From: a virus
IMG/VR virus record: IMGVR_UViG_3300002461_000295
Span: 1-44,447 of that record
Length of the DNA stretch: 44,447 nucleotides
Direction: 5' to 3' (one strand)
Within the stretch, counting starts at the first letter, position 1, and each line of letters starts with the position of its first letter. Both the position numbers and the translations under genes were made by a program. This document shows, one piece after another, positions 1-44,447 of the stretch. The notes beneath the pieces are model-generated. The model was not told the origin of the DNA and searched no databases. It saw only the letters and a list, made by a program, of their open reading frames with translations.

Positions 1-126
1 CCCGGACCCGTACCCGGACCCGTACCCGGACCCGTACCCGTACCCGTCCCCGTACCCGTACCCGTCCCCGGACCCGTACCCGTACCCGTCCCCGGACCCG
101 TACCCGGACCCGTCCCCGGACCCGGA
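1..126. repeat. Tandem hexamer array of 21 phased units CCCG[G/T][A/C] (8x CCCGGA, 9x CCCGTA, 4x CCCGTC), running into the left window edge
   Basis: Read directly. The units are perfectly in phase from nt 1. The minus strand has GGG every 6 nt. There is a partial 18-nt super-period (GTA,GTA,GTC). The variant CCCGGC never occurs. Confidence 0.97.
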
Positions 127-147
127 CAGCTCTTGCGGCTCATCCAT
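1..147 (-). CDS. Candidate 5' part of a (Gly-X)n dipeptide-repeat ORF: MDEPQEL followed by 21 x [S/D/Y]-G, open to the window edge
   Basis: ATG at 147-145 overlaps the stop of the upstream gene (ATGGATGA context). The frame stays open through every repeat unit to nt 1. Only a weak AGG lies upstream. There is no homology support. Confidence 0.3.
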   Translation of the reverse strand, partial: MDEPQELSGSGDGSGYGSGDGYGYGSGDGYGYGDGYGYGSGYGSGYGSG

Positions 148-514
148 TGTGGACCGCCTGAGCGCGAATTACGCGCTCTGCTTCGGCGCTACACTGAAGA
201 ATTTCACAATTCTCCGTCAGCGCGATGCGCTCAACCGGCGCACTAACCTTGCTGTCCTTATGAATACCAGAAAGCGCGATTGCGTTGAGAAAATCGCCAT
301 TGCCAGCAGTCTTCCAATACCACAGACGACGCGCGTCAGTCAGCACGCAGGCGCGGCCATCAGTCGCTTCCAGCACGCCAGCATGAACGCCTGCGTCGCG
401 ACAGCGAACAATGACATACTTACCCACCATGCCAGTGTTAAATGTCCCCGCCGATGAGCCGAACTGAGCCGCAAGCGCCTTGGCCTGTCCAATAGTAAGA
501 TCGTCGATAGTCAT
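140..514 (-). CDS. Conserved phage protein of unknown function (124 aa)
   Basis: ATG is preceded by a GAAAGGA Shine-Dalgarno. The sequence is globular and protein-like, with a ...DARRLWYW... core that I recall from other phage hypothetical proteins. Confidence 0.8.
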   Translation of the reverse strand: MTIDDLTIGQAKALAAQFGSSAGTFNTGMVGKYVIVRCRDAGVHAGVLEATDGRACVLTDARRLWYWKTAGNGDFLNAIALSGIHKDSKVSAPVERIALTENCEILQCSAEAERVIRAQAVHNG

Positions 515-19700: not shown

Positions 19701-22700
19701 CACGCGCTTCCGTCAGCAATTCGTCGCTGGCAGGCTCTTCGAAGATTTCCTTTTGCCACTCGCGAATATCGCCGCGCGACAAGTCTTTCATGAATTGCGA
19801 GAAGATATCGATCCAACCAAAGTCCTTCCCGCTACGGTGCAAATGCTCAAACCGCTCGGCGAGCGCAAACAATTCATCGGACGCCTCACTCTTCACGGCT
19901 TCCATTTGATCAGGCGTGACAATGTTATTGCGGGCTTTCTTGATTGCCGTGATCGACTTGAATTGATTGGCAACGCTCGCACGCAGCGAGCCAACGCCGT
20001 AGTTATAGCCTTCCCCGTCGCGAATTGTGCGCGTCATGTCGCGAACCAGCGCGTCCATTTCATAGGGTTGGCGACGCCCGGACGTGCGACTTTCAAAGAA
20101 TTTCTTCCCCAGAACATCGCGATATTTACCAGCGATCCAGGCCTGATATTCCCCTTCGCGCTTTTTCGTCGCGGTCATCTTTTTGTCGATCGCGCGCCGC
20201 GTCGCATAGATATCGACTTCGCGCGGCCCGTTGGCGCGAGCGACTTCAGCCGCGCGCCCTTGCAACTCGCGAAACGCAACCGTGCCGTCTTCCATCAGCC
20301 AGCGATCACCAACGCGGTTTGCGGCCTCTTCCCCGGCGCGCGCCGCAATGTCAGCAAGCTCGCGCTCGATCACCGCACGGACGGCAGGCTCAAAGTTGGG
20401 ATCATCGGCAATGTCATAGCGCGATCCCTTGAACCCCTTCAGCTCAGGTTGCAGCGGTATCTTGGCCGCATAAGCCAGCTTCACGTTTTGCCCGATCGAG
20501 CGCAGATATGTCAGCTTGGCCGCATAGGATCGTTCGACCGCTTCCAGTCCTTCACGCGATATCGTGGTTTCATCAAACTCGTTATCGAGGCTTGCGCCCA
20601 GATCGTCCGCCGCCTGCTTCATGTCCGCCAGCATGACGCGCAGCTTCGGACCAACCAGATCGTACCGCGCGCGCGGCTGGCGAGGCGAATAGACGTCAGC
20701 ATCAAACGCCTTCGCGCCCGCCGACGCGGCCAGCTCTGGCGAGCCAACCAGCGAGATTTCACCGAAATTGCTGAAGCCCAGATCGGCGCGGATCACCGCG
20801 ATTGATGGAGCCGCCAGCCCGCCCAACTCTTCCGCATTGCGGAAACCCGCAATCGACAGGTTGTGAACAACGACAAGCGGACGGCCCTCTTGATCGAAAT
20901 ACGGCACGTCACCAACCGGCTGTTCGTTCCGATAGCTGTCCAGCGCCTTGCGGATTTCAGCCGTCGTTGCCTTGTCAGGATCGATCCCGCTGTTTTCGAG
21001 GATGCCCCGCAAGTCTTCAGCCGCCCGGCGCACGTCATCGGACGCGCTCCCCGGCGTGTCCGCCGCATAGCGCGGCGTGCCGCGAAGCTCAGCGTCGATC
21101 GCATCCAGCAGGGCTTGCGTGTCCGGCAGATCGCTATAGCCGCCCTCGGTAATGTCACCCGACAATTCCGCGCTGCGTTGCAGCTCAGGAAAATACCCAG
21201 CCTCGATCGCCGCCTGAAGCGTGTCGTCCAGGCCAGCACCCGTTTGCCCAGCGCCGCCCAGCATGCCACCTTGCGCCGCGTTTGCGGCGACGTCAGCGCT
21301 CGACCGGCGCACCAGCTTGCGGCGGAACCGGCCTTCGCGGTGCCAGCGATCCGCGCCCATCGACGCCAGATCACCGCCGACGTCGTCGATCCCGCCACGC
21401 GCCGCGATAAACTCCAACAGGGAAGGGCCGAAGCGTTGACGATCCGTTGCCGCGCTCTTGTCCCGACGCATGGCGTTGATCGTCATGTCCAGACCATCGA
21501 CCGCTTGAACGCGGCTCAGCGCTTCCGGCAAGATACGGCGAAACTCGACCGGGTTGAGCTTGCGGTAATCCGTCGCAGTCATGCCCAGCCGCGCGGCCCA
21601 TGTCTCACTGTTCGCCGCCCAGAGCTGCGCATAGCGATCCGCCGCGTCCGGCGCGAACCCGGCATTGGCGAGCTGATCCCGCACTTGGCTATAGACTTGC
21701 GCGGCAGGCTCAGCCGCCGTTGCCGCAGCCGTCATTTGCTCGACGATTTGCGCTTGCGTGCGATCCAGCCCTTCGGCCTGCAATTGTTCCAGGCTGGCAA
21801 GCTCAGCTTCGGACATGCCGCCCGGCGAGAACCGCGCTTCAGGTTGCAGCGCGCGCCATGCGTCCGTACCCGCCAGCCGCGCCGCCGCGTCCGCCGTTGG
21901 GATCACAACGTCACCGTCGAGCGCCAGCGCTTCATCAATCTGTTCGGCGTAATCGCTCCAAAACGGATCGTCGCGGTATCCGTCTTGCATCAGATCGCGG
22001 ATCGCTTCAGCCAGGATATAGATATTCTCGACAGGCGTTCCCTGCGTCTGTCCTTCGACAAACTCGCGAAACGCTTCAGGATCACGCGCCCGCAGCTTCG
22101 ACGCTTCCGCATCGGCCATCAGGCTGTCCATGATCACCGCCCCGGCCTTCGCCCGGTTGGCTTCAGCATAGGTGCGGATTTCGGCGCGGATACGCCCACC
22201 GGCCTCTTGCGCGGCGCGCAGCGGTCCGCCGAGAAACGCGCCGCCGATCGCGCCTTGCAGCATTTGATCGAGCGCTTCCGTCAGGTTGCCACCCTTTTCG
22301 GTGCCAAGCGCGCCACCGGCATATTCAACGCCAGACTGAAGCGCCTCGGTCCCGGCCTCACCAGCCGCCGCAAAACCGATCCGCGTCCCGACGCGGGCAG
22401 CAGCCCCGCCACCGACGCGAGACGCCACAGCGCCCGCCGCACGGCCAAAAACAGCCTCGATCCCCAGCCGCTCGATCAGCGCCGATGCCACCGCCGCAGG
22501 CGCGGCCATCGCCACATCGGTAATCGACGCATCGGCCCGCCCGTTATTCTGTGCCCGCGTCTGTCCGATATTGCCCGCTTGGCTGGCAACATAGGCAGGC
22601 AGGGCCAAGCCAGCAACCGCCATGCCGGGGATCGACTGGATACCGCTCTCGACGCCGAACGCGGCAATGTTACCCGCCGTTGGCCGCGCCTTCACATCGG

Positions 22701-31361: not shown

Positions 31362-31796
31362 TTAGAGGCCCGTGACGCTTGGCACGTAGGGGTTGGCGTC
31401 CGTATCGGACAGAAGGAACGCCGAGACCTTGCCCGTGCCCGCGCTGCGATCGCCAACCAGGACGTACCGCACGCCGACATAGCGCTTGGTATTGTCCGGG
31501 AGCTGGACGTCCCAGAGCTTTGCGCCCGCGACCGCAGCGGCTTCCGCCGTGACGGGGCCGCTCAGCAGGACGTCGGGCGACGACATATCCGCGTTGGCCG
31601 ACTGGATATAGACCGGCTGGATCGACGTGCCGCCCGTCAGCGTGGTCTCCACCACAACGAGCAACCGCATCGGCTGGCCGCGCCCGAGGTTGCGGTTGGC
31701 GGAAAGCAGATCAACATTGTTCGTCGAAAGCACCGTGCTTGCGACAAGCGCCACCGTTTGCGCGTTCGACAAACGAAGCTGTGCGTCAGTAATCAT
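31362..31796 (-). CDS. Capsid decoration / cement protein candidate (144 aa)
   Basis: Small beta-rich protein directly downstream of the major capsid gene. Order and size match the cement protein of BPP-1-like podoviruses as I recall them (inference). Confidence 0.7.
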   Translation of the reverse strand: MITDAQLRLSNAQTVALVASTVLSTNNVDLLSANRNLGRGQPMRLLVVVETTLTGGTSIQPVYIQSANADMSSPDVLLSGPVTAEAAAVAGAKLWDVQLPDNTKRYVGVRYVLVGDRSAGTGKVSAFLLSDTDANPYVPSVTGL

Positions 31797-31854
31797 GTTC
31801 TTGTGCCCTTTCTCTTGCAGCGAACGAGGCGAGGCAACCGCCCCGCCCCATCGA

Positions 31855-32895
31855 TTAGCTGACTTGCGTTTCGTTGACGTTCAGCGCGTCAGTGCGACGG
31901 ATCGGAATATCGTCGAACATCAGCGTCGAGCTTTTGCCCTGCTCACTCAGCGAGAGGAAGGTGTTCTTCTTCTCGACGAGCTGTTGACGCAGGAACGAAC
32001 GGATCACGCGCGGCATGTAGAAGGCGATACGCACGCCCTCGGTGCCTTCGATCGTTTCCAGCGCCCGGATCATCAGGTTCTGAAGATACGGACCCGTGGC
32101 AGCGTTGAACGTCAACGCCGTTGGATCGATATTGCAGATACGCACGGCATAGCGCCAATCCTTGACCATCAGGCCGCAGCGCCACAGCCAGTGATCGCGA
32201 TAACCCATGTAGAGGTTGCCGTTCGCATCCTGAAGCGCCTGCCCAGGCGGAAAGCCATCGCCCGGCCCGCTGCCAGCAGCAGGCGAGGTTGCGTCTTCGT
32301 GCCCGAGACCGCCCTTCGTGTTCTTCGGATAGATTCCCGTGATGGTATCTTCCGACCAGGCAATCAGCCAGATCGAGCGCAGCGCCGAGCCGGTGCCGCC
32401 AGCGCTGATCACGTTGTTGGCCGTCTGGGACGTCGCGGTCGAGAGGCTGTTATAGCGCGGCGCGAGGCCGGTGAAGCCCTTCGGATCAGCGAGCGCGTTG
32501 CCGTAAAAAACCTGTTGCGCCATCTTGTGCGCAAACCCGATCATGTGCGGCTTCGCCTGCTTCAGACGATAGGCGTTCACGTTGCCGGACAGAACAGCCA
32601 GCTCGCGATCCGTCTGGCTGAAATCTTCCAGCAGCGAACAGGTCTCTTCGATCGGCGTGGTGCCGCCCTTGGAGACGGGGACGCCTTCGTTGATCGCGCG
32701 GAACGTCGGCACGGGCAGCGCCGTGCGCACGCTATCGCGGTGCCCGGTGACGAGGTTGCCTTCCATCCACGTCATGTCCTGAAGCACTTCGGTATGCTGC
32801 GTCAGGACTTCGGCAGTATCAAGCTGCGAACCGTCCGGCGCGAGTTGCTTCAGAACATCAATCAGCGTGTCAACGCCGGAACCAATAACAGCCAT
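31855..32895 (-). CDS. Major capsid protein (346 aa)
   Basis: Position after the scaffold gene, size, and sequence pattern typical of HK97-fold podovirus coat proteins. Strong SD. Confidence 0.9.
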   Translation of the reverse strand: MAVIGSGVDTLIDVLKQLAPDGSQLDTAEVLTQHTEVLQDMTWMEGNLVTGHRDSVRTALPVPTFRAINEGVPVSKGGTTPIEETCSLLEDFSQTDRELAVLSGNVNAYRLKQAKPHMIGFAHKMAQQVFYGNALADPKGFTGLAPRYNSLSTATSQTANNVISAGGTGSALRSIWLIAWSEDTITGIYPKNTKGGLGHEDATSPAAGSGPGDGFPPGQALQDANGNLYMGYRDHWLWRCGLMVKDWRYAVRICNIDPTALTFNAATGPYLQNLMIRALETIEGTEGVRIAFYMPRVIRSFLRQQLVEKKNTFLSLSEQGKSSTLMFDDIPIRRTDALNVNETQVS

Positions 32896-33744: not shown

Positions 33745-34024
33745 TCGGGGTCTCCATTCGGGTTTTCTGTTCCTCGCTCAGAACAGCAAGCAGGGCGTCT
33801 GGATCGACGCTTTGCATCGTTGCGAGGATATCTAAACCCAGAGACCTTCGCCCCTCCCACCAAGGGAGATTGCGACCATCGGCTCCGTAGCTTCCCCGCA
33901 ATACGTTTGCGTCCATCAAAACGCAATACACAAATCGGCGGAAGCGCGCGTCGTTCAGCAGCGCCCGCATGTCCGACGATAGAAGCTGTTGGCGCGTTAT
34001 TCGCGGCGCGCGCGCTTCACTCAT
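33638..34024 (-). CDS. Conserved head-module protein (128 aa, Bbp19-like position)
   Basis: ATGA overlap with the portal stop. The globular N-terminal ~90 aa are followed by 107 nt that overlap the scaffold gene out of frame. Confidence 0.65.
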   Translation of the reverse strand: MSEARAPRITRQQLLSSDMRALLNDARFRRFVYCVLMDANVLRGSYGADGRNLPWWEGRRSLGLDILATMQSVDPDALLAVLSEEQKTRMETPNGRRSTSDRRDELGTGEPDGRERNNGFTFLDYSAE

Positions 34025-35730
34025 TGCGCACCCATCACGCGCTCAAGCATATTCTGTCCGCCGACGTCGGTGCGGCTCAGCAGCTCAGCGGCTTGCGCGC
34101 CGTCCGCCATTGCGGGCATTGCGGCCAACGCCTGTTGCCGTTGCTCAGCGGCTTGACGATCCGCGCGCAGCTTGGCGACGACTTCGTCAGTGCGGATAAT
34201 CTTTGGCGGCGTGCCCGCGCCCGTGGCAAATTCGTCGATTGCCTGATCCGCGTCAAACTTGTCGGCAGCGCCAGGAAACAGCCCGGCGAGGAAACCGACG
34301 AATTGCGCTTGGCGCTGGATCGAGTTGAGGCCAACCGCGCGCTGCGCTTGCGCCAGCGTCGAAATGAAATCGATTTTCAGCGGCTCCCCTTGCAGCTCTT
34401 GCGGCGGCGGCGGAAGCTGGCCGGTCTTTTCGAGGATCGAGAAGGCGCGGTCGATCGCCACTTCCAGCTTTTCGATATTCACGCGCTCAACGACCGGCCC
34501 GAGCTGCGTCAGCTTTTCCTCATTGCGAAGGAACAGCTCTTGTTCATTGCGCGGCTGCACGCCTTCCATTTCGCTGATCGCCATGAACAGATCGGCATAG
34601 AAGCATTCCATCACGTCGCGGCCATGCGCCTCGACTTCCTCACGCACCGCTTGAACCGCGCGATAGTCCGGCACCAGCAGCGGCTTGACAGCGCCCAGAT
34701 CAGCCGCCGACGCATAAGTAATCGAGCCGGGATCGAGCGTGAGATAGGTGTTCGTCATGCCCGTGGGCGCGCCCATCGGCGGCTTGTTCAGCATGTCAAC
34801 GGCGCGGCCCCGGCGCTTGGCGGCAAGCTGAAGCTCGCGCAGATCGGGCAGGGAGTCATAACCAGGCCCGTCCCCATAGACGAACGATCCGCCAGTCTCG
34901 ACCCAACGCGGTGCCCAGAAGGGCTTGTCGTCGAAGCCGCTATCGCGCAGCAGGACGCTCTTGTTGCCGTTGCCCTCTTCCCACCAGATCGAGCGCCACG
35001 CCTTGTTGCGACGATCCTCTTTGCCCGGCTCGCGCCGATCGTTCGGCTCGATCGCATGAAACACGCGCACCACTTCCTGATAGCGCGAATTGTTATAGGC
35101 GTTCTGGACAGTTTTCGAGAGCTTTGACCACGGGAACGATTGAACCATTTGGTTCACCGTCATCATGACAACGCGGTAAAGCGTATCAGCGATCAGCCCG
35201 TCATCGTTCGCAATCCAATATTCCCCCGCCGTCAGAGGATGACACACCGCCCCATAGATCGAGTGTTCGAGCATGACGGTCGCTTCAGTGCCGAAGCAGC
35301 CCAGCTCAGCATAACCAATCTTGGCGGCGTTGTAGAAGTTGGTCGAAGCCAGAAAGTTGTAGATCAGCCGCTCGACGACCGCGATCCATTCCTTGACCGG
35401 CTGAAACTCCATCATGTCCTTGTCGCGCGTTTCCAGCTTGAACCAAGGGCGCGAAGGGGATGACAGACCGGACGTCATGCCGCCCGTCAGGATACGTGCA
35501 GCGCGCCGCCCCTTGGACGAATACATCGACGTGTTCGCGCGGCGGCGGCGATTGGACGACACCGGCACGCCCGTTCCATACATCGACATGCCGGATTGGC
35601 CGAGCATTTCAGCCCGCGCGGGCAGGACCAGCCGGGAAATCTCTTCCCAATCCTGTTCATAGGGCGCGCGCACCGACCGCATTCCGGCAAGGCGGCGCTC
35701 ACAAAGCTCGCGGCGGGTTGGCTCAGCCAT
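34021..35730 (-). CDS. Portal protein (569 aa from ATG 35730)
   Basis: Size, position after TerL, and sequence pattern of podovirus head-to-tail connector proteins. The ORF-track start is TTG 35745, while ATG 35730 gives a TAATG junction. Confidence 0.9.
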   Translation of the reverse strand: MAEPTRRELCERRLAGMRSVRAPYEQDWEEISRLVLPARAEMLGQSGMSMYGTGVPVSSNRRRRANTSMYSSKGRRAARILTGGMTSGLSSPSRPWFKLETRDKDMMEFQPVKEWIAVVERLIYNFLASTNFYNAAKIGYAELGCFGTEATVMLEHSIYGAVCHPLTAGEYWIANDDGLIADTLYRVVMMTVNQMVQSFPWSKLSKTVQNAYNNSRYQEVVRVFHAIEPNDRREPGKEDRRNKAWRSIWWEEGNGNKSVLLRDSGFDDKPFWAPRWVETGGSFVYGDGPGYDSLPDLRELQLAAKRRGRAVDMLNKPPMGAPTGMTNTYLTLDPGSITYASAADLGAVKPLLVPDYRAVQAVREEVEAHGRDVMECFYADLFMAISEMEGVQPRNEQELFLRNEEKLTQLGPVVERVNIEKLEVAIDRAFSILEKTGQLPPPPQELQGEPLKIDFISTLAQAQRAVGLNSIQRQAQFVGFLAGLFPGAADKFDADQAIDEFATGAGTPPKIIRTDEVVAKLRADRQAAEQRQQALAAMPAMADGAQAAELLSRTDVGGQNMLERVMGAQ

Positions 35731-35852: not shown

Positions 35853-36055
35853 GCGCCGAGCATCGGCTTGCCGCCAGTGACGGCGGGCATGCCGAGCGTG
35901 CCGTTTTGCGGAGTGAAAATGGAAGCGGCCATTGCCAGGCGGCGGCGCGAGCGATCCCCTTGGCGAACGGCTGGATTGCCATCGTCCGGCTGGCGCGCGG
36001 CTTGCCGGTTGGGCACAGGCTCAGGAGCGTCCGGCGTCGATACAAGGCACATCAT
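35849..36055 (-). CDS. Hypothetical protein (67-68 aa)
   Basis: ATGATG overlaps the TerL stop. GC3 is about 75 percent. The competing 99-aa ORF in another frame is Arg/Cys-rich and not protein-like. Confidence 0.45.
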   Translation of the reverse strand: MMCLVSTPDAPEPVPNRQAARQPDDGNPAVRQGDRSRRRLAMAASIFTPQNGTLGMPAVTGGKPMLGA

Positions 36056-37719
36056 CTTCCTCCATTCAGCTCAGCATAGCGATCGGTTGACGGCGCTCTA
36101 TGCCCTGCAAAGCCGCTGAATACCACATTTCGCTTCGGCGTCGATACCAGTGCGTAAACAGCCGCGTCCCCGCGATCCGGCGACCGGCCCAGCCGGGCAA
36201 CCAGCCCCGTGGGCTTGCCGTCCGCCGTTGGCTTGCCGCGCTTCGGCTCGACCATGATCCCGGACGGCGTCAGCCACCAGCGCGGCGCGGCCAGATCGGC
36301 CAGCAGCTCAGCATCATCGGGAAGATCGATCGGCTCTGGATTGGTAGGATCGAGCGCTTCCCGCATGCGCCAATAAAGCTCAGACCGTAGATTGACGAAC
36401 GACAGCAGGCCGGACTTGTCATGCCCAAGGCTTTTCGCGCCGCCGTTCACGCCGATCACTTGGACATGCGACGTGTTCAGGAAATCATAGGGCGACGTGC
36501 CCACGCCGACGATATCGATATGGACAACGGCCCCGTCGCGGCGGCGCTGGATCACTGCACCGGCAACAGCAGGGCCATCCTCGACGTTGATCCCCTTCAG
36601 GCTGATCAGATCATCGAACCAGGTGCCGTGACGCCGGGCGATGACAGTGCGATCCTTGCTTGTGCCGCCCGTCATGCCGCCCATGCTCGACCGCGACACG
36701 TCAACGCCCATGCTGTCCATTGGCCCTTTCGTGTCGCGCGGCTTCCAGCGTGCCATTGCCGCTTCGATCCACGCCGTTGGGATCAATTGCCGTTCGTCAT
36801 CCTCGATCCCGGCATCGAAATCGCCGTTCAGCATTTGCGAGCGCAGCGGCTCAGGCAAGGATTGCAGCGTCGAGATATAGCCAGTCGCCATGTAGAAGGG
36901 GTTATCAGTAACCCGGCTTGGAATAAAGGTGCGGCTTTTCGGCTCGATCACCTTCGTCTTGCGCGCGCCCTTGTAATCGTTCGGATCGAAATCATACACG
37001 CGCTCTTGCGTGACAGTGCCATCGCGTTCGTAAAGCACGAACGGGCGAGCGTCCGGCACTTCAACGTCACGCTCACCGATCGTTGCGAAATACAGCAGTT
37101 CACCAGGCGCGGCGCGCTTAGGCCATTTTTTGTCCAGCCACGGACCAAAGAACGGGATCACCCAGCGCCCTTCCGCCGTCGTTGGCGGATTGAACGTCAG
37201 GATCGAGCGCACGGGCTGGTTCGGCAAGTCTGTTCTGTTCCAGCCCATGATGAAACGGACTTGAAACTCCCGGCATTCGGTTGCTTCATCGACCGCCTTC
37301 AGATCATGATCGCGGCCCTGCCATTTGCGATGATCGGACAGATCGTCGAGACCGCCAAACTCAATCAGCCGCCCGTCATATTTCCAGAAGCTCTTTGTCG
37401 AATTGTACCCGTCGTCATTCCCGATAATCTTGGTGAAATCCTGCACAAACTTTTCGGTTTGCGCCTTCTCGCGCCGCAGGATCAGCGATCGATTGTGTGA
37501 GCATAGCGCCAGACCGCAGACGAGGAACGACTTGCCACCACCGCCCGCGCCGCCGAACCCGAGGATATCGGCATGGCTATCCCATGCGTCGAGCTGAGGC
37601 CCAGGTTGCGGCTTGAACAGCCGCGTGTCGCTTTCCAGCAGGCGGAACAGGTCTTCGCGCTCTTCCGGCGTCAGATACGGAAGCAGCTCTTCAATCTCTT
37701 CAGCGCGCATCAACTCCAT
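36052..37719 (-). CDS. terL: Terminase large subunit
   Basis: Walker A GFGGAGGGGKS (nt 37528-37560) followed by ATPase and nuclease-type regions. ATG 37719 (MELMRAEEIEELL...) is preferred over the ORF-track TTG 37827. Confidence 0.92.
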   Translation of the reverse strand: MELMRAEEIEELLPYLTPEEREDLFRLLESDTRLFKPQPGPQLDAWDSHADILGFGGAGGGGKSFLVCGLALCSHNRSLILRREKAQTEKFVQDFTKIIGNDDGYNSTKSFWKYDGRLIEFGGLDDLSDHRKWQGRDHDLKAVDEATECREFQVRFIMGWNRTDLPNQPVRSILTFNPPTTAEGRWVIPFFGPWLDKKWPKRAAPGELLYFATIGERDVEVPDARPFVLYERDGTVTQERVYDFDPNDYKGARKTKVIEPKSRTFIPSRVTDNPFYMATGYISTLQSLPEPLRSQMLNGDFDAGIEDDERQLIPTAWIEAAMARWKPRDTKGPMDSMGVDVSRSSMGGMTGGTSKDRTVIARRHGTWFDDLISLKGINVEDGPAVAGAVIQRRRDGAVVHIDIVGVGTSPYDFLNTSHVQVIGVNGGAKSLGHDKSGLLSFVNLRSELYWRMREALDPTNPEPIDLPDDAELLADLAAPRWWLTPSGIMVEPKRGKPTADGKPTGLVARLGRSPDRGDAAVYALVSTPKRNVVFSGFAGHRAPSTDRYAELNGGR

Positions 37720-37735
37720 GCGCACCACATAGAAC

Positions 37736-37764
37736 GGGCGCGGCCCCGTTGCAAAGCCGCGCCC
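37736..37764 (-). other. 9-bp GC hairpin (GGGCGCGGC / GCCGCGCCC, 11-nt loop) 16 nt upstream of the terL ATG
   Basis: Read directly. It lies in the 230-nt spacer between 37951..38412 and terL. Confidence 0.5.
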
Positions 37765-37950
37765 GTAGCTATTCCGATGCTTTGACCGGGAGACAATCCG
37801 CCCGCTACCCTTCCCCGGCCCTGCCAACCAGCAGCCGCAGCATCGACGATTGAGGGACGCGCTACCGCCCCCTCCATCTGAAGGACGGGCAGCTTGTTAA
37901 ATCGCGGCGTCCGCCAACGCCAGCAATTCATCCCGCATCGGGGGTTCCTT

Positions 37951-38412
37951 TCAGTGTGGTGAGGGCGGCATCGATCGCTTCAAATGCCGGCGATAGATCA
38001 ACCTCTTGCTTGCCAAGGCTGACTCCGAGCAGCGTGTGTTGTGCTTGTCGCAAAGCCCCTCCGCCACCTTCGCACACCGCTCCACCACTTCACGCATACG
38101 ATCAGGCTCTGCTGCTATGTATGCTTCGAGTTCGGTGATGCGCAGATATGCGGTTTCAGCAATGCGCGCCGATAGTTCGGCTTCGTTCGGGCGACCCCAG
38201 AGTCGCTCATTGCACCATTCGCGATAATGCATTGCCTGACCGAGCAAATAGCGAGGCTCAAATCCCAACAATGGGGTGATGGGATCGCTTGTGCTTAGAT
38301 TGCGATCTGCCGGTCGCCGAAACCGATCGAGTTCGGCTTCAAGGTTTTCGATGTAGGCGTTGATCTTCTCCACATCCGCCGCCACGCCAGCGCTGTTCTG
38401 TGTGTCTGTCAT
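37951..38412 (-). CDS. Hypothetical protein (153 aa)
   Basis: ATG 38412 (MTDTQNS...) forms an ATGA overlap with the upstream ORF. Helical and lower in GC than its neighbours. Confidence 0.65.
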   Translation of the reverse strand: MTDTQNSAGVAADVEKINAYIENLEAELDRFRRPADRNLSTSDPITPLLGFEPRYLLGQAMHYREWCNERLWGRPNEAELSARIAETAYLRITELEAYIAAEPDRMREVVERCAKVAEGLCDKHNTRCSESALASKRLIYRRHLKRSMPPSPH

Positions 38413-38549: not shown

Positions 38550-38679
38550 CACCACATCCTTCCGCGATATGCTCTTCGATCGACGGACGTTCATCGTTCT
38601 GCACAACGGGCGGCTTGGCCGATCCGCGCAACGCCTTCGCAGGCGAAACAGGGCGTTCTTCAGGTGCTTCGTCAGTCAT
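38542..38679 (-). CDS. Small acidic protein (45 aa, below the ORF-track cutoff)
   Basis: ATGA overlap with the terS stop. MTDEAPEERPVSPAKALRGSAKPPVVQNDERPSIEEHIAEGCGDD. Its stop lies within ATGACTGA of the next start. Confidence 0.4.
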   Translation of the reverse strand: MTDEAPEERPVSPAKALRGSAKPPVVQNDERPSIEEHIAEGCGDD

Positions 38680-39218
38680 GGATTTTCCTTTCGTGCCTTG
38701 GCCGCAGCCATCAGTGCCGCGACCTTTGCCGCAGCGTCGTCCAGGTTCGGCGTCATCGTTTCGCCGCCCGTCGTCAGGTCGAGCTTGTCACCGTATTTCT
38801 TCGGCTTCAGCTTTGAAGCGTGCCAGCGCCGTTGCTCGATCCGCAGCTTCGAGCGCGCGACGTGTTCGCCGTTGACCGCGAAGCCGATGATCATGCCTTC
38901 AGCGTTGCGCTTCTCCATCCAGTCGTTCCGGCCATCGTCCGCGATCAGCTCGCATTCGTCGATGAGGCTGTCCGCTTGGTCTTCGCGCGCGCGCGCGTAC
39001 TGGGTGCGAAAGCTCTCGCCAATTTCGTCGTCCCGGCGCAGCCAGCGCAGCACGGTAATGCGGTGCGGCATGTCGTCGTCTTCACAGATCGCGCGCAAGC
39101 TCTCCCCCAGGGAGAGGCGGTCGCAGATCGTGTCTGCTATCCCTTGAGTATAGGACAATGGGCGTCCCGTGGGCTTGTGTCCGGCAGGGACTATTTCGCT
39201 TTTGGATTGCTCAGTCAT
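38676..39218 (-). CDS. terS: Terminase small subunit
   Basis: The N-terminal HTH pattern ICDRLSLGESLRAICEDDDMPHRITVLRWL...FRTQYARAREDQADSLIDE is typical of podovirus/Sf6-type small terminases. Confidence 0.8.
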   Translation of the reverse strand: MTEQSKSEIVPAGHKPTGRPLSYTQGIADTICDRLSLGESLRAICEDDDMPHRITVLRWLRRDDEIGESFRTQYARAREDQADSLIDECELIADDGRNDWMEKRNAEGMIIGFAVNGEHVARSKLRIEQRRWHASKLKPKKYGDKLDLTTGGETMTPNLDDAAAKVAALMAAAKARKENP

Positions 39219-39525
39219 TGCCGCCCCCAATCGTCATACCACGGGTTTGCATGATCCGTTCCACATGATCCGCCATCACTCTGCAACGAATAGCAAACGC
39301 ATGAACATCATTGGCAAGCCCGCGCAGGGACGTGGGCGTATGGTTTGCCTTCAGCGAATTACAGTCAGCGCAGGCGAAGACAATGTTCAGCACCGAGCGA
39401 CCGCCGCCGATCGATTTCGGGATGACGTGATCGCGCGTCTTTCGTTTGCCCGGCACAGTCATGTCAAACGCATCGCCGCAATAGGCGCAGGCTTCACCTT
39501 TCGTGATCGCGTCAGCCATTGCCAT
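39211..39525 (-). CDS. HNH endonuclease (terminase-associated)
   Basis: CAYCG...DHVIPKSIGG...NIVFACADCNSLK is a ββα-Me HNH motif with two CxxC pairs. It lies directly upstream of terS and overlaps it. Confidence 0.85.
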   Translation of the reverse strand: MAMADAITKGEACAYCGDAFDMTVPGKRKTRDHVIPKSIGGGRSVLNIVFACADCNSLKANHTPTSLRGLANDVHAFAIRCRVMADHVERIMQTRGMTIGGGND

Positions 39526-39997
39526 CCTCCACAACCCCGAGCGCCGCCGACGTGGCATTGAACGCGTCCGCGCACAGTTGCGCCTCTTCCTTCGTCATAG
39601 CACGCCCTTCCCCGTAGGCGAGCAGCGCAGCGGCAAACGCAGGGCGCGCGGCCTCACATGCCCCGAACGCATCGCCAGCGCCGGGCGGTGGATCAAAGCC
39701 AACCAGCAGCATGCTCTTCCCCGCACCCGCAAGCAACTCACACAGGCGGCGATACCGAGCATAGTCGAGTTGCGCGACAAGCGTGTCATCGTCCGCGCCG
39801 TGGACCGAGACGAAAAACATCGGCCCCTTCCCCAGCACGTTGGACGCACCCACGCCAATACCGGACGGCGGCTTGTTGCTGGTTGCGCCCGTCACCATTG
39901 GTGACGCCACGGTGCAGCCGAAGCCGCGCATCATAGGCATGACGAACGCGCCGCCAGGTTCATCCCCGGACAGGCCGGGCAGGATCACACCGCTCAT
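39512..39997 (-). CDS. Hypothetical protein (161 aa)
   Basis: Long ORF with high GC3, tightly packed. Confidence 0.65.
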   Translation of the reverse strand: MSGVILPGLSGDEPGGAFVMPMMRGFGCTVASPMVTGATSNKPPSGIGVGASNVLGKGPMFFVSVHGADDDTLVAQLDYARYRRLCELLAGAGKSMLLVGFDPPPGAGDAFGACEAARPAFAAALLAYGEGRAMTKEEAQLCADAFNATSAALGVVEDGNG

Positions 39998-39998
39998 A

Positions 39999-40268
39999 TC
40001 AATTCACTTTCTGCGTTGATTGCGCGCCCGCGTGTTCAATGATGCTTGCGCCCAAAGCGCGCGCCGGTTCGGGATCAAGGCGAAGCTCCAACCGTTGCCC
40101 TTCAACGACAAACGTGATCGCCACAGACGGACAGCCCGTTTCACATTTGGGGTTGGCACAACCAACCGCAGCAGCGCCGATCATGCCGTTGGGCATGTCC
40201 TTGATTGGCCCTTCATTCCAGAAACCCCAGAACGGTACAGCCTGCACGTCCTTCATTTCGATCGTCAT
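39999..40268 (-). CDS. Hypothetical protein (89 aa)
   Basis: ATGA overlap upstream. Protein-like sequence. Confidence 0.65.
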   Translation of the reverse strand: MTIEMKDVQAVPFWGFWNEGPIKDMPNGMIGAAAVGCANPKCETGCPSVAITFVVEGQRLELRLDPEPARALGASIIEHAGAQSTQKVN

Positions 40269-40942
40269 GCTTCTGGTTCCTTCACATCATGCGACGCCAT
40301 TGCCGCATCAAATTGTTCTTGATTGATCCAGCCGGACCCGAGCCACATGCGCAGCAGCGATTGCCCCAGGTCCGTACCCGCCAGCTTGGCAAGCTCTTCG
40401 TCTGTTGGTGCTGACAGCTCAGCCTCTTCGAGACGCGGCGCAGACGCTTCCGCAATCTCACGTTGCAACCGTTCCAGCCGGGCGATGGCCGCGCGATACC
40501 GAACGGCATGCTGTTCCGCCTTGTCGCGGATCACGCCCTCGACTTCAGAAAAAAACCGGATCGCGACATGCAGCGCGTCTTGCGTGCCCCGGATCACCGC
40601 GCGCGGCGGCAGATCGGACAGCGACGCGATCATTGCGGCGAGCCAGCCGCCCACTTGCTCAGCGGACATTGTCGGATTGAGCTTCGCCCCAATAGGCCGC
40701 AGGGCATCGGCCAGCTTTTCGGTTGCCACCCCATCGAAGCGGAAGCCGGTTGGCTTGGACGCGTCGCGGATCACAGCACCCGGCTCGACTTGCTTCAGCG
40801 GAAGCAGGGCCGCGCGCAGACCGTCGATCGTTGCCGGGATATCCGCCTTGGTATCAAGCGGCAGCGTGGAACGCATGTCGAGCGCGAGCGCGCCCAGCTC
40901 ACGATCAGGCGACCCAGCCAGAAGGGCGACTTCCGTTGCCAT
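40265..40942 (-). CDS. Hypothetical protein (225 aa)
   Basis: ATG 40942 has an AGGAAAGGA SD. It overlaps the end of the upstream gene by 38 nt. Confidence 0.7.
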   Translation of the reverse strand: MATEVALLAGSPDRELGALALDMRSTLPLDTKADIPATIDGLRAALLPLKQVEPGAVIRDASKPTGFRFDGVATEKLADALRPIGAKLNPTMSAEQVGGWLAAMIASLSDLPPRAVIRGTQDALHVAIRFFSEVEGVIRDKAEQHAVRYRAAIARLERLQREIAEASAPRLEEAELSAPTDEELAKLAGTDLGQSLLRMWLGSGWINQEQFDAAMASHDVKEPEA

Positions 40943-41606
40943 GTCCGTTCCTTTCCTGCTTGACCGCAAACAGACCAGTCCAGCCGTTCATCGTCGATTG
41001 ATCCAAGACGGCATCGGGATCGTGCCCATCAGCCTTCAGCTTCGTCAGCTTTCCGATCGCCAGCTTGATCGCCCGTTCGGTTGGCGGCTTTTTCGCTTTC
41101 GTCCGCATGGCAATCCAACCGTCCCAGCTTTCACCCGAAAAGGGGTTAGGGGATATATCTTCTGGTTCTGGTTCTGGTTCTGGTTCTGCGTCGCCACTCC
41201 CGCCTTGTATCCCGTCGCCACTCCCGCCTTGTATCCCGTCGCCACTCCCGACAACACTCCCGCGCCGTTCGTTCGTTTTCAGTGCGCCAGTCCTGCCGCC
41301 TTCGCTCTTTTTGCGGTGCAGATCGCGCGCCTTTTCGGCTTCAGCAAGCGCGCGAAGATTGACGATCGAGCCATCAGCGGCGCGCACCAGCTTGCCGGAC
41401 GCAACCAGCTCTTCGACGTACCGCTCCCAGCCCGGCAGATCGCCGAGCATGACGGGCATTTCAGCAGCAGGAACCGGGCGCGCATAATCCCAGATGTAGC
41501 AGCACAGATCAAAATACACCGATCGATGCAGCCGTGACATGCGCGCCGTTCCGGCGACCCAATCTGAAGGAAAAAATGGCACGTAACTATGCCTCCCGTT
41601 AGACAT
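40905..41606 (-). CDS. DUF1376 (YdaU)-family protein, putative replication organiser, with a repeat-encoded linker
   Basis: The N-terminal YVPFFPSDWVAGTARMS...YFDLCCYIWDY matches the DUF1376 pattern. The linker reads GSGDGIQGGSGDGIQGGSGDAEPEPEPEPE. The C-terminal domain ends ...NGWTGLF. Confidence 0.8.
   Translation of the reverse strand: MSNGRHSYVPFFPSDWVAGTARMSRLHRSVYFDLCCYIWDYARPVPAAEMPVMLGDLPGWERYVEELVASGKLVRAADGSIVNLRALAEAEKARDLHRKKSEGGRTGALKTNERRGSVVGSGDGIQGGSGDGIQGGSGDAEPEPEPEPEDISPNPFSGESWDGWIAMRTKAKKPPTERAIKLAIGKLTKLKADGHDPDAVLDQSTMNGWTGLFAVKQERNGHGNGSRPSGWVA
41160..41188. repeat. (TTCTGG) x 4.8 microsatellite inside the DUF1376 gene, encoding (Glu-Pro)n on the minus strand
   Basis: Read directly. 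Confidence 0.95.
41190..41250. repeat. 24-nt direct repeat GTCGCCACTCCCGCCTTGTATCCC x 2.5 inside the DUF1376 gene
   Basis: Read directly. Two perfect copies plus a 13-nt partial third copy. An ATATAT element lies about 30 nt upstream on the plus strand. Confidence 0.95.
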
Positions 41607-41682
41607 GACGGGCTTGCCCCGAAAGGCACGACGGGATAATAGGAAACCAGATCATACGCGAGACCCCTTCGCTTGTGTTCTA

Positions 41683-41720
41683 GGGCCGGTCGATCGTGTT
41701 TTCCGCCACGATCCCGGCCC
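41683..41720 (-). terminator. 14-bp bulged GC hairpin in the 130-nt intergenic gap, no U-tract
   Basis: GGGCCGG(tc)GATCGTG-ttttccgc-CACGATCCCGGCCC, read directly. It lies just downstream of the stop of 41737..42315. Confidence 0.35.
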
Positions 41721-41736
41721 GCCCTTTATGCGCTGA

Positions 41737-42315
41737 TCAATAGCGTTGTGCAAGATCGCGCGCATGCTTCAGCTCCCCGGCAAACTGGTTGTTGGCAATC
41801 GTCCGTCGCGCATGCTCAGGCGTGCCCTCGACTTCAGCCAGGATGATCGCCTTGCGTTCTGGCAGGCGGAAGCCTTGCCGCTTCAGACGGACGTTCAAAT
41901 CCCAATACTCTTCCGGGCACCATGCGAGCGCGCGGCGCTGGATAGACTTGCCCGCGCGAGCGCGCTGTTCAGGCGTCGAAGGCACCAGGTTCGGCTTGCC
42001 GTACCGATGACCATGCTCGACCATCAGCGCGCGGAAAGCAGGGTCTTTCATGCGCTCAGCGCGCGCCGCCCGGCAGATATCGCCCAGCCGCTTGCGAAAG
42101 GCAGGATCGGCTTGTGTCGCGGCCATAGACGCCGAGCGCTTGGCAACGACCGCCTTGTCCGCGCTCAATTGCCGGGCATGGGCCGCGCGGGCTTCGCGCT
42201 GTTCCGGCGTGAGCTGCCCTTTCTTCGCGCGCACCGCAGGATCGGCGGCGGCGCACTTGGCGCAGCGTCCGCTTTTCGTCTTCGGGCTGATGGGCTTTCC
42301 GCATTTGCAATTCAT
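41737..42315 (-). CDS. Zn-ribbon plus repeat-containing DNA-binding-like protein (192 aa)
   Basis: N-terminal CKCGK...CAKC. Repeated DPA[VF]R... and TPEQR[EA]RA... segments are reminiscent of NUMOD3-type modules. No nuclease motif. Confidence 0.7.
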   Translation of the reverse strand: MNCKCGKPISPKTKSGRCAKCAAADPAVRAKKGQLTPEQREARAAHARQLSADKAVVAKRSASMAATQADPAFRKRLGDICRAARAERMKDPAFRALMVEHGHRYGKPNLVPSTPEQRARAGKSIQRRALAWCPEEYWDLNVRLKRQGFRLPERKAIILAEVEGTPEHARRTIANNQFAGELKHARDLAQRY

Positions 42316-42710
42316 CGAGTAACCCCGTTCGTCCAGAAGCTATCGTCAGGTGCATCGCGCTTGTCCCAAGCTGCGAGGCACCACGCCACCACGTCAACGC
42401 CCCAGCGCGCCAGAAACTTGGCTTCCGAGCCGAGACCGTGGACGCCTTCATCCCCTTGGTGATGATCGTGGCAAAGAGGCGCGATGAAGCGATGATCCCG
42501 CCGCCGCACTTTGCCCGGCGCTGTCATCACATGATGTACGCAGGCGGGACGGCGGCAGACCAGGCACCCGAGCTTTGCGACGCGCTCGATATGCTCTTGC
42601 TCTTCAGTGGTTGCCGCCGCCTTCGCTTTCGGTTTGATCCTGTTGTGTTGCACCCGCCCCTCGCGGCGACGCGGCTTGTCCCGTTTCGCTTTGAGGGGCG
42701 AGCGCTTCAC
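42312..42710 (-). CDS. Ref/DUF968-like HNH-type nuclease-fold protein (132 aa)
   Basis: GCLVCRRPACVHHV...APLCHDHHQGDEGVH pattern (Cys/His-rich, as in P1 Ref-like proteins). ATGA overlap with the next gene. Confidence 0.75.
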   Translation of the reverse strand: MKRSPLKAKRDKPRRREGRVQHNRIKPKAKAAATTEEQEHIERVAKLGCLVCRRPACVHHVMTAPGKVRRRDHRFIAPLCHDHHQGDEGVHGLGSEAKFLARWGVDVVAWCLAAWDKRDAPDDSFWTNGVTR

Positions 42711-42712
42711 GA

Positions 42713-43762
42713 TCAGGCTTCCGGCGAACCGAAGAACACCGTCGCCTCGGTTTCCGCATCAACGCGCTGGACGGCTTCGTTGAAAGCGTGATCGAAAGCG
42801 TGATCGAGACGCTGAAGCTCGAACCAGAACTTCAGGCCGTCCGGCGTCTTGCGGTAATTGAGCGCAGCCGCCACGCGGTAATACGCACCGCGCTTGAAGA
42901 TCGGGATCGCGATGAAGAACATCGTCGGCACGCGGACGACTTCACCCGCAGCGCCGACCCGGCCCGTGCGATGCTCGACCGTGAAACGAAGATGCCCTTC
43001 GCCCGAGCTGAGCGTTTGCGCCTCTTCAACCGTCGCCTCTTCGTGGACCTTCAGGCCGCGCGACAGCTCGATCAGCTTGGCATAGTCGGCAATCATGTCC
43101 GGCCCGCCGCGCGTCTTGACGAAGCGCTCCAAACCGTCCGGCACGCCGTCTTCAGGAAGCGCTATATCGCCCATGTTCGCTTCGAGGAAAACGGCAAAGT
43201 CAATCATCGACATGACGACCTTGTTCTTCCCGTTCCACGCCTTCCATTCGTCGGACAGCGGGAAAGCAAAGTGCGTGCGGTGCTTGCCGTGGCGATAGTC
43301 ACCATGAACGCGTTCGCCGCGATCGTCCGCGTCCACAACCAGCGTGTCCGCCCGGTGATAGTCCAGCAACGCCGTCAGCGCGGGCGCGCTGCGATTGTCA
43401 CTGGCGAAGATCGCCGTGTCGCTGTCACCGAAGCGATTGACGTGCGCGATGAAGCTATCGAGCGACGTCATCGTTGCCGTGCCACGGCGGAAAAGCGGCT
43501 CTTCGCGCACGTCATCGAAGAAGCTCGACGGGATACCAATAACCCCATCGACTGTGACATAGGCCACCTTTTCGATACCCGTGCCCGGCTCAGTCACCGT
43601 CACCAGATCGGGCTTCATCGCTGCGTTGTGATCCGTGCGGACTTCCGCCAGGATTTCACCGATGCCTTCAGTCCGGCGGGGCAAGCTCGACGCCATCGCC
43701 AGGATCGCGGACAGCGAGAGAGTGCCAGCGCTTTCGTCTTCGTTGTTCGTTTCGTCAGTCAT
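42713..43762 (-). CDS. DUF2303 (YfdQ)-family protein (349 aa)
   Basis: The overall pattern (HFAFPLSDEWKAWNG..., FFIAIPIFKRGAYYRV...) matches my recollection of the prophage YfdQ/DUF2303 family. Confidence 0.8.
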   Translation of the reverse strand: MTDETNNEDESAGTLSLSAILAMASSLPRRTEGIGEILAEVRTDHNAAMKPDLVTVTEPGTGIEKVAYVTVDGVIGIPSSFFDDVREEPLFRRGTATMTSLDSFIAHVNRFGDSDTAIFASDNRSAPALTALLDYHRADTLVVDADDRGERVHGDYRHGKHRTHFAFPLSDEWKAWNGKNKVVMSMIDFAVFLEANMGDIALPEDGVPDGLERFVKTRGGPDMIADYAKLIELSRGLKVHEEATVEEAQTLSSGEGHLRFTVEHRTGRVGAAGEVVRVPTMFFIAIPIFKRGAYYRVAAALNYRKTPDGLKFWFELQRLDHAFDHAFNEAVQRVDAETEATVFFGSPEA

Positions 43763-43807
43763 GTTGATTTCCTCACTTCAGATTGCGGGCAACCGGCCCG
43801 CGCGGGA

Positions 43808-44257
43808 TCAGACCGAGCGAACCGGCCCGGACTGATCAGTCACTTCGCGCACGCCGAAGAAAGCACGCTGTCCAGGTGGATTGCGCGACAGCCCGCCGTC
43901 TTCGTGCGCGAACAGCAGCGTGCCCGGCACCTTGATTTGCGGCTTCTTCACCTTGACGGAAGGCACCACGACATGCGCGCCGTTCGCCAGCACGATATCG
44001 AGCGTGATCGTGAGCTGTCCCTTGGACACGCCCTTGTTCACATAGCCGTGCGCTTCCATCGCGCGGATCAGCTCGCGCATTTCGCCCGAGGCGTCCGCGT
44101 CGAATTGCCCGTCATTCAGCAGGCGCAGCGTGTCCGCGATCGTCACCGCCTTGCGCGGCATGGGCAGACCATCGGCGGCGGTCTCGACCTTGGACGCGTC
44201 GATCGTGCGACCAACTTCCCCGGTTTCAGGATCAAAAGTTTCAGGCTTCATGTTCAT
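43808..44257 (-). CDS. Hypothetical early protein (149 aa)
   Basis: GAAAGGAAT SD upstream of ATG 44257. Protein-like sequence. It is the first ORF downstream of the right-edge repeat array on the minus strand. Confidence 0.75.
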   Translation of the reverse strand: MNMKPETFDPETGEVGRTIDASKVETAADGLPMPRKAVTIADTLRLLNDGQFDADASGEMRELIRAMEAHGYVNKGVSKGQLTITLDIVLANGAHVVVPSVKVKKPQIKVPGTLLFAHEDGGLSRNPPGQRAFFGVREVTDQSGPVRSV

Positions 44258-44320
44258 TCCTTTCGTGAGTAAATTCGATGATGTGATTGCGAAGCAATCG
44301 GATCGAGCAATTTACGGGGT

Positions 44321-44447
44321 TTACCCGGACCCGGACCCGTACCCGGACCCGTCCCCGTACCCGTACCCGTACCCGTCCCCGTACCCGTACCCGTCCCCGT
44401 ACCCGTACCCGTCCCCGTACCCGGACCCGGACCCGTACCCGGACCCG
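44321..44447 (-). CDS. Candidate 3' part of the (Gly-X)n repeat ORF, ending ...GSGYGSGSG and TAA at 44323-44321
   Basis: In the Ser/Tyr/Asp-Gly frame, the codon directly after the last repeat unit is TAA. The frame is in phase with the left-edge part if the ends are joined through the 22-nt identity. Confidence 0.3.
   Translation of the reverse strand, partial: GSGYGSGSGYGDGYGYGDGYGYGDGYGYGYGDGSGYGSGSG
44324..44447. repeat. Tandem hexamer array of 20 full units plus 4 nt of CCCG[G/T][A/C] (6x GGA, 10x GTA, 4x GTC), running into the right window edge
   Basis: Read directly. It contains three consecutive 18-nt super-units (GTA,GTA,GTC). The last 22 nt are identical to nt 1-22. Confidence 0.97.

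Follow-up and report, generated by a model that had tools for sequence, protein, structure and literature searches.

A putative X-Gly repeat gene split across the ends of a circular-mapping phage contig

Results

The locus and its genomic neighbourhood

The window, by which we mean the entire 44,447-nt stretch analysed (IMG/VR record IMGVR_UViG_3300002461_000295), is a podovirus-like phage genome with nearly all of its genes on the minus strand. These include genes for a 3,201-aa protein of the virion module (13738-23343; phrog_9880), the major head protein (31855-32895), the portal (34021-35730) and the large terminase (36052-37827), as well as a replication and recombination block (38676-44257); the small terminase of this genome is of the Sf6 type. 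Near the left end lies a minus-strand gene (140..514) for a 124-aa DUF6948 protein (Pfam PF22253, E 1e-25), modelled as an Sm-like barrel, and a hexamer array begins 14 nt past its stop codon. At the right end, a second array is separated from the next gene by a 63-nt minus-strand spacer (44258..44320) with GAAAGGA before the ATG at 44257. This next gene is YfdP-like (43808..44257, minus strand; PF27127, phrog_204), lies downstream in the same operon and is followed by a DUF2303/YfdQ gene (42713-43762, minus strand); a weak match to a RecA-dependent nuclease and an O-like initiator complete the operon here.

No promoter-like site was found at or near the array and no terminator-like site in the 44258..44320 spacer, and the few terminator-like matches in the scanned array flanks lay away from the array and were at chance level. 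An Rfam search of the window gave no RNA family. No integrase was present among the window ORFs scanned, nor was a reverse transcriptase among the scanned window ORFs, a subset of all ORFs. We considered and rejected the array as the target of a diversity-generating retroelement: the window holds no second array copy, long imperfect direct repeat or template/variable pair. In a Megablast search with 40 kb of the window, none of 50,697 phage records matched. Inside the minus-strand gene 40905-41606, positions 41160-41266 carry TTCTGG repeated 4.8 times and then a perfect 24-nt repeat (2.6 copies), which are likely origin iterons within the O-like (DUF1376) initiator gene, as in lambdoid phages.

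Hexamer arrays at both ends of the window

By direct reading and parsing, positions 1-126 consist of 21 hexamers of the form CCCG(GA/TA/TC), and positions 44324-44447 of 20 such hexamers followed by CCCG. The unit order of the left array is GA,TA,GA,TA,GA,TA,TA,TC,TA,TA,TC (units 1-11) and GA,TA,TA,TC,GA,TA,GA,TC,GA,GA (units 12-21); that of the right array ends ...TC,TA,GA,GA,TA,GA,CCCG. The two arrays are far beyond chance (Tandem Repeats Finder scores of 164-185) and constitute the sole genuine repeat family of the window: parsing of both strands revealed no further run of three or more CCCGNN units elsewhere. Both carry CCCGNN on the same strand and are thus direct repeats, and no inverted partner was found in the window.

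Placed in register, the left and right arrays are 90% alike, but their longest exact suffix-prefix identity is 22 nt (CCCGGACCCGTACCCGGACCCG), which keeps the unit phase. Joining the ends without overlap breaks the hexamer phase, while overlaps of 4, 10 or 22 nt preserve it. The first-pass annotation had described the same three hexamers at both ends in differing order and a longest identity of 22 nt in phase, and our parsing agrees on both points. It was also right that the ends form no exact long direct terminal repeat, given that only 22 nt are shared as against the roughly 100 nt or more required. When the units were shuffled within each array, an in-phase overlap of at least three units arose in 7.3% of trials and any overlap in 49%. 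By itself, the terminal identity is therefore weak evidence (P about 0.07, not significant).

A putative small gene divided between the two ends

Read on the minus strand, the units are TCC-GGG, TAC-GGG and GAC-GGG, i.e., Ser-Gly, Tyr-Gly and Asp-Gly. The resulting X-Gly (XG) repeat ORF opens at 127..147 (minus strand) with a start codon and a seven-residue leader (ATG GAT GAG CCG CAA GAG CTG, MDEPQEL). Its ATG (147-145) overlaps the end of the upstream DUF6948 gene, whose stop codon is the TGA at 142-140 (ATGGATGA), an arrangement resembling that of translational coupling; the same start/stop overlap (ATGGATGA/ATGGCTGA) is found in the relatives L155, L156 and L157. The 5' coding repeat occupies 1..126 (minus strand, 21 hexamers read from 126 down to 1) and encodes SG SG DG SG YG SG DG YG YG SG DG (units 1-11) and YG YG DG YG YG SG YG SG YG SG (units 12-21). 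The 3' coding repeat lies at 44324..44447 (minus strand, 20 hexamers plus 4 nt) and ends ...DG SG YG SG SG, directly followed by a TAA stop codon (44321..44323, minus strand). The start of the gene is thus near one end of the window and its stop near the other, in the same frame; a single small gene, at least 83 codons long, is interrupted by the contig ends.

If the 22 nt shared by the ends are counted once, the product has 83 aa and 38 units. The halves can overlap by three units at most, which makes 38 a lower limit. The first-pass annotation had proposed an array of about 38 units, possibly under-assembled; the latter part still stands, but the figure is a lower bound rather than an estimate. 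It had also taken the hexamers as a non-coding array, a view that we revise: the arrays form the body of what appears, from comparison with relatives, to be a protein-coding gene. The window ORF reads MDEPQEL and then SG/YG/DG units, and its composition agrees with the totals of the family described below.

All three forward frames are open through the arrays. The window array exclusively uses GGG, TAC and TCC, codons that serve only 24%, 27% and 16% of the respective residues in the phage's own genes. Such uniform use of minority codons, together with a bias for GGC in the family, makes a constraint at the DNA or RNA level possible. A G-quadruplex on the coding strand ((GGG N3)n, at least 38 G-tracts) was considered and rejected because relatives mostly use GGC and the property is not conserved; in the window this motif is probably incidental.

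Junction of the window ends in an independent contig, closed at another site

The exact DUF6948 protein of the window is also encoded on a 44,698-nt contig from an activated-carbon metagenome (ENA ERZ922818, k127_215692, run SRR2905791; L128), which bridges the two window ends. Its flanks match the window at 3388/3389 nt and 2861/2861 nt, and its gene order (DUF6948, array, YfdP-like, DUF2303) corresponds to window 514...1 followed by 44447...42713. The first and last 87 nt of this contig are identical and map once to the window, in unique sequence (38056-38142). The sizes match exactly: 44,698-87 = 44,611 = 44,447-250+126+288, where 250 nt are the two half arrays, 126 nt the array of k127_215692 and 288 nt an insertion at window 38059/38060. 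The 44.7-kb ENA contig does not encode the terminase protein in exactly the form found in the window, and its end was reached via the portal protein; an exact search of the right flank in viral and metagenome contigs gave no match.

The window thus appears to be a complete, circular-mapping phage genome. This is what had been proposed at first pass, namely one whole replicon, circular or circularly permuted, opened inside a single array: k127_215692 crosses the array and closes at another position, and the sizes of the two contigs reconcile. The outcome named there as contradicting the proposal, host sequence flanking the arrays or two termini that cannot be joined, is ruled out by the junction in k127_215692. 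The Sf6-type small terminase would suggest headful packaging and a permuted map, and the phage is probably a podovirus with a circularly permuted genome of about 44.4-44.6 kb that is packaged by the headful mechanism.

Food for thought is why the contig ends at this particular place. The assembler probably opened the circle inside the array because this exceeds one k-mer or read in length and is heterogeneous in the population. About 126-127 nt of array-compatible sequence are present at each window end; this reach would correspond to one 127-mer, which suggests an effect of the assembler and not biology. The array of k127_215692 has 21 units, i.e., 126 nt or k-1 for a 127-mer assembly, in an uninterrupted ORF that is possibly collapsed. 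Its first 18 units are those of the left half of the window, and it ends ...YG DG YG DG as opposed to ...DG SG YG SG SG in the window; either this short allele is real or the array was collapsed in assembly. The contigs of several relatives, some of genome length and some shorter, likewise terminate in the XG array (L003, L129, L130, L155 with 43,255 nt and L156 with 44,196 nt).

The X-Gly frame in relatives

Relatives with 52-82% identity in DUF6948 share the XG ORF with other codons. In L003 (DUF6948 77% identical), a GGGTAC/GGGTCC array lies at the contig end, 20 nt past the gene. In L004 (52% identical), ATG CCC CTT is followed by 45 units of GAC/TAC/TCC/TTC/TGC-GGC and then TAA, giving the peptide MPL(DG/YG/SG/FG/CG)45. 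Of the closer relatives L155-L158, which were retrieved by exact-protein look-up, L155 and L156 have GGC-based units. The change from GGG to GGC is synonymous in the X-Gly frame only, which favours this frame. L157 and L158 (82% identical) carry a 57-aa ORF (MDDWLDGYGYGSGYGNGAGTGTGYGDGAGNGSGFSTGDGDGAGNGSGYGDGDGAGSG); the DNA repeat of L157 is decayed (TAT/TAC, GGC/GGA, Ser as AGT and TCT) and the (XG)n peptide is kept.

A scan of viral contigs for a pattern of ten [D/A/Y/S]-Gly codon pairs yielded at least 120 loci. Among the matches listed, 93 loci contained bona fide arrays, corresponding to 98 ORFs, and frame statistics were calculated on the 68 of the ORFs listed that had no contact with a locus end. 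An ATG was present within 25 codons upstream of the array in 57/68 and a stop within three codons of it in 33/68. Both were present in 28/68 in the X-Gly frame versus 5/73 and 2/74 in the other forward frames. In 15/68, the ORF continued for more than 40 residues into conserved C-terminal domains. Fusions to DUF6948 itself also occur: in L038 the domain is joined in frame to (XG)44, and in PHROG 18306 an XG stretch lies N-terminal to the DUF6948 part. Leader peptides of the XG ORFs are short and not conserved.

Among the matches listed, the X residues of the 93 loci are S (1074), Y (1063), D (775), N (45), F (25), H (15), C (7) and A (7). Ala thus occupies 7/3,044 units versus about 290 expected if the two variable codon positions were independent. 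The non-Ala residues are Tyr (TAC) and the six residues reached from it by one nucleotide change at codon position 1 or 2. Gly is encoded by GGC in 85% of units, even where the flanks have less than 45% GC, and codon choice is near-uniform within each array. As side observations, about 98% of the X residues in the 93 loci (among the matches listed) are Tyr (TAC/TAT) or a single-nucleotide neighbour of it, the steps from Tyr to Asp and from Tyr to Ser are both A:T to C:G transversions, and Ala (GCC) is one step from GAC and TCC yet nearly absent.

Distribution of the gene pair

Array loci were picked by the DNA repeat pattern alone and then examined with a profile built from seven DUF6948 sequences. 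In 58 of the 74 judgeable loci among the matches listed, a DUF6948 ORF ends upstream of the array, at a median distance of about 24 nt. Conversely, in contigs of bacterial genomes (isolates and metagenome-assembled), the XG array lies directly downstream in 8/10 DUF6948 loci; Novosphingobium sp. FKTRR1 accounts for two of these, and a 4.5-Mb chromosome for another. A link of the array to the downstream gene was considered and rejected, as the phrog_204 loci L001 and L002 are without array: the array travels with DUF6948. Cultured phages with the pair inside complete genomes are NK-7, the Ymer genus and phiPLPE. The copy in the window is hence a further member of a gene pair already deposited, uncharacterised, in phage genomes.

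DUF6948 has 1,147 homologous clusters in a large protein collection, and the few that are named are called 'hypothetical protein'. A search with the XG protein produced at least 8,000 candidates, with no informative name among the matches listed. We looked for DUF6948, the XG protein and a fused 149-aa domain (see below) in Pfam, PHROGs, NCBIfam and PADLOC and retrieved only matches to DUF6948 and phrog_18306. Literature searches on DUF6948, the peptide motifs and a phage fibroin heavy chain gave nothing relevant save a table listing the phiPLPE repeat. Neither a name nor a tested function for the XG family was found in Pfam, PHROGs or NCBIfam, and the searchable literature offered only speculation at the DNA level.

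Variation of the arrays beside conserved flanks

Although their flanks are identical, the window, k127_215692 (L128) and L130 have their units in different orders. L130 comes from a second sample and encodes the identical DUF6948 protein; its array begins SG YG SG DG SG versus SG SG DG SG YG in the window, a difference that is reliable because it is within 30 nt of unique sequence. Between the phages Ymer and Amona, the 1,300 nt upstream and the 1,000 nt downstream show no difference, but the arrays differ in length and order; in eight isolates of the Ymer group, the XG ORFs range from 53 to 89 aa. The Bacteroides-type loci L049 and L094, with flanks 99.7-100% identical, have 36 units each in different order. 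Finally, 23 protein clusters of a Bacteroides type (P0221-P0244; one Bacteroides uniformis protein is in the family) have a 12-residue leader in common (MEEQIRKFLSIY) and a 149-aa C-terminal domain that is 100% identical, and carry 23 different arrays of 13-49 units.

The changes always comprise whole 6-nt units, so that the frame is kept. Judging from these comparisons, length and order of the array seem to change much faster than the flanking DNA, for which slippage and unequal exchange would be likely mechanisms. Most of the arrays were assembled from short reads, so that some misassembly is possible, and unit orders in their interior need care; differences next to unique flanks are solid. 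The Ymer-genus phages were assembled with metaSPAdes from 2 x 150 nt reads (PMC11445585).

Structure prediction

AlphaFold2 predicted the XG stretch with a pLDDT below 50, and DUF6948 with a pLDDT of 87.8 and a pTM of 0.74. In a Foldseek search of the PDB, the top 50 matches of DUF6948 were all Sm/LSm proteins (E 4e-3 to 2e-2, TM 0.44-0.73 relative to the target); DUF6948 thus models as an Sm-like fold, with modest Foldseek scores. A PDB sequence search with DUF6948 found nothing, and the viral structure library BFVD contained only unnamed DUF6948 proteins as matches. The 149-aa fused domain had no PDB match by AlphaFold2 and Foldseek.

Discussion

We consider it well supported that the terminal arrays are the two parts of a split minus-strand coding repeat, that a circular genome was opened there by assembly, and that the array changes fast. 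Accepting this, the contig would be a complete genome whose ends are an assembly break, with one gene split across them. The array would be at least 38 units long, and one 288-nt indel separates the assemblies. The terminal position of the array would then be an ordinary assembly effect; it is the gene family itself that is curious, being widespread as a DUF6948/XG pair and extremely variable in length and order beside perfectly conserved sequence. The XG-repeat gene appears to be a recurrent breakpoint of phage contigs, and this has a practical side. Metagenomic viral contigs are called circular on the basis of a direct terminal repeat of at least 20 nt (CheckV-type criteria). The 22-nt identity of the window satisfies this length, but it is of low complexity and at chance level (P about 0.07). 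As an identity of this size is expected by chance, the circularity of the window rests on the independent contig. A short terminal identity inside an XG array can therefore pass a circularity test by chance. Gene calling is affected as well, the family being systematically mis-called (in the +1 frame, ENA) or missed (phiPLPE).

Other explanations of the arrays deserve consideration. They could be a non-coding element acting at the DNA level, such as an attachment site, a replication origin or a packaging site, with the open frame being incidental. An attachment site was indeed the speculation of Comeau et al. (2012; PMC3391216) for phiPLPE, and the hexamer NNCGGS is conserved in DNA, GGC is preferred in AT-rich phages, codons are homogeneous within arrays and every forward frame is open. 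Nonetheless, start and stop codons are specific to one frame, in-frame fusions join arrays to DUF6948 and other domains, the decayed L157 array retains its peptide through synonymous and cross-family codons, and Ala is almost absent. In addition, no integrase is present among the tested window ORFs, and the likely origin iterons are elsewhere (41160-41266, in the O-like initiator gene). Taken together, we regard a purely DNA-level element as improbable. Fainter still is the case for translation in the +1 frame, which would give a Pro/Thr-Gly repeat protein, MSRKSC(PG/TG)n...GKPRKLLDPIASQSHHRIYSRKE. An ATG of its own and a longer tail outside the repeat speak for this frame, which was the choice of the ENA gene caller in k127_215692 (70 aa; L128 3372-3584, corresponding to window 143 wrapping to ~44260). 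In GGC relatives, however, it would read Thr/Pro-Ala and not Thr/Pro-Gly, so the peptide is not conserved; the (D/S/Y)-G frame alone is preserved, starts and stops at the edges of the array in different phages and is fused to conserved domains.

Alternatively, the arrays could be the true ends of a linear genome, either telomere-like or as short direct terminal repeats. The presence of one repeat family in the same orientation at both contig ends would fit such a genome, as would the contigs of 43-44 kb from relatives that end at the same place. A replicon with hairpin telomeres or inverted terminal repeats was rejected, the arrays being direct and on the same strand. More generally, true linear ends are very hard to reconcile with k127_215692, which spans the array and has its closing 87-nt overlap at another site, with a gene that starts at one window end and stops at the other, and with homologous arrays that are internal in complete genomes of cultured phages and in a bacterial chromosome. 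The sole terminal identity is 22 nt, at chance level, and the Sf6-type small terminase suggests headful packaging. We give this reading as little credit as the +1 frame, and both clearly less than the non-coding element. The split coding repeat, opened by assembly, is the reading that we follow below.

The closest published case is Iodobacter phage phiPLPE, for which a GC-rich repeat, (KMGCCG)35 at 46,046-46,255, was reported as a speculative novel attachment site (Comeau et al., 2012; PMC3391216). This repeat is of the same type as that of the window: its reverse complement, (KMC GGC)n, reads [D/A/Y/S]-Gly, and it lies directly downstream of a DUF6948 homologue (gp84, 37% identity) and beside recombination genes. 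It differs in using GGC instead of GGG, and it was published as non-coding and is unannotated in the record. In Ralstonia phage NK-7 (XCO36015, 'fibroin heavy chain-like protein', 137 aa) and in Pectobacterium phage Ymer (WCD42787) and its genus, DUF6948 is immediately upstream of the XG ORF, as in the window. These ORFs likewise have a short unconserved leader, an (S/Y/D)-Gly array and a stop at or just past the array, and array length varies between near-identical phages of these types. Unlike in the window, the array is assembled internally in NK-7 and the Ymer genus, their backbones are different and their DUF6948 proteins are only 35-44% identical.

The annotation of XCO36015 presumably derives from the repeats of silk fibroin. 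The heavy chain of this protein has crystalline (Gly-X)n repeats in which X is Ala, Ser or Tyr. Silk and the phage arrays both alternate Gly strictly with a small or aromatic residue and are encoded by a hexanucleotide-type repeat, but there is no homology, and the phage arrays are nearly without Ala and rich in Asp, which argues against a silk-like packing of beta-sheets. Another comparison regards Sm, LSm and Hfq proteins with Gly-rich tails, such as the Arg-Gly repeats of eukaryotic SmD1 and SmD3 and the GGFGGQ repeats of Acinetobacter Hfq. The phage pair similarly brings together an Sm-like barrel and a short Gly-containing repeat, either fused (L038, PHROG 18306) or encoded by adjacent, overlapping genes. 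In contrast to those tails, the phage repeat is acidic and aromatic instead of basic and usually a separate polypeptide, and the barrel is Sm-like by fold prediction only (E ~4e-3).

What could be the role of such a protein? The XG product might be a disordered, acidic and aromatic low-complexity polypeptide that is co-expressed with the Sm-like DUF6948 protein in an early recombination/replication operon. Elsewhere, the pair is also found beside recombination genes (Erf and SSB in Ymer, RecE and Bet in phiPLPE). Gene adjacency, overlapping start and stop codons and occasional fusion lead us to propose a partnership, in which the XG product is most likely, albeit with low confidence, a detachable low-complexity partner or tail of the DUF6948 protein, the latter being a presumed nucleic-acid binder. 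A more far-reaching and rather doubtful idea is that of a widespread two-part module, in which the hypervariable in-frame repeat is the disordered partner of a ring that binds RNA or ssDNA, and change in length and order would be under functional selection instead of being tolerated only. If so, the partner could be a nucleic-acid mimic, a condensate scaffold or a decoy.

Other features of the genome

Some observations touch on other parts of the phage. The head genes (31362-32895, minus strand) are of the Bordetella phage BPP-1 type (PF20911 GP7, PF21190 Bbp16). A plus-strand block that diverges from the rest of the genome contains a RecE-like exonuclease VIII (4589-5809) and a RecT-like annealing protein (6177-7061), and, with the minus-strand YfdP-like, DUF2303 and weak RecA-dependent-nuclease genes, the recombination gene set is unusually rich. 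At 38048-38060, the window is without a net 288 nt that are found in ENA contigs of both samples (L132 3205-3480, L135 96-371). Within the extra segment lies a small ORF rich in Cys (zinc-ribbon-like), and copies of the direct repeat GAGGGGG[T/C]TTTGCGA flank the segment. At this position, the window represents the variant with the deletion; the polymorphism is also the exact point at which the 44.7-kb ENA contig breaks.
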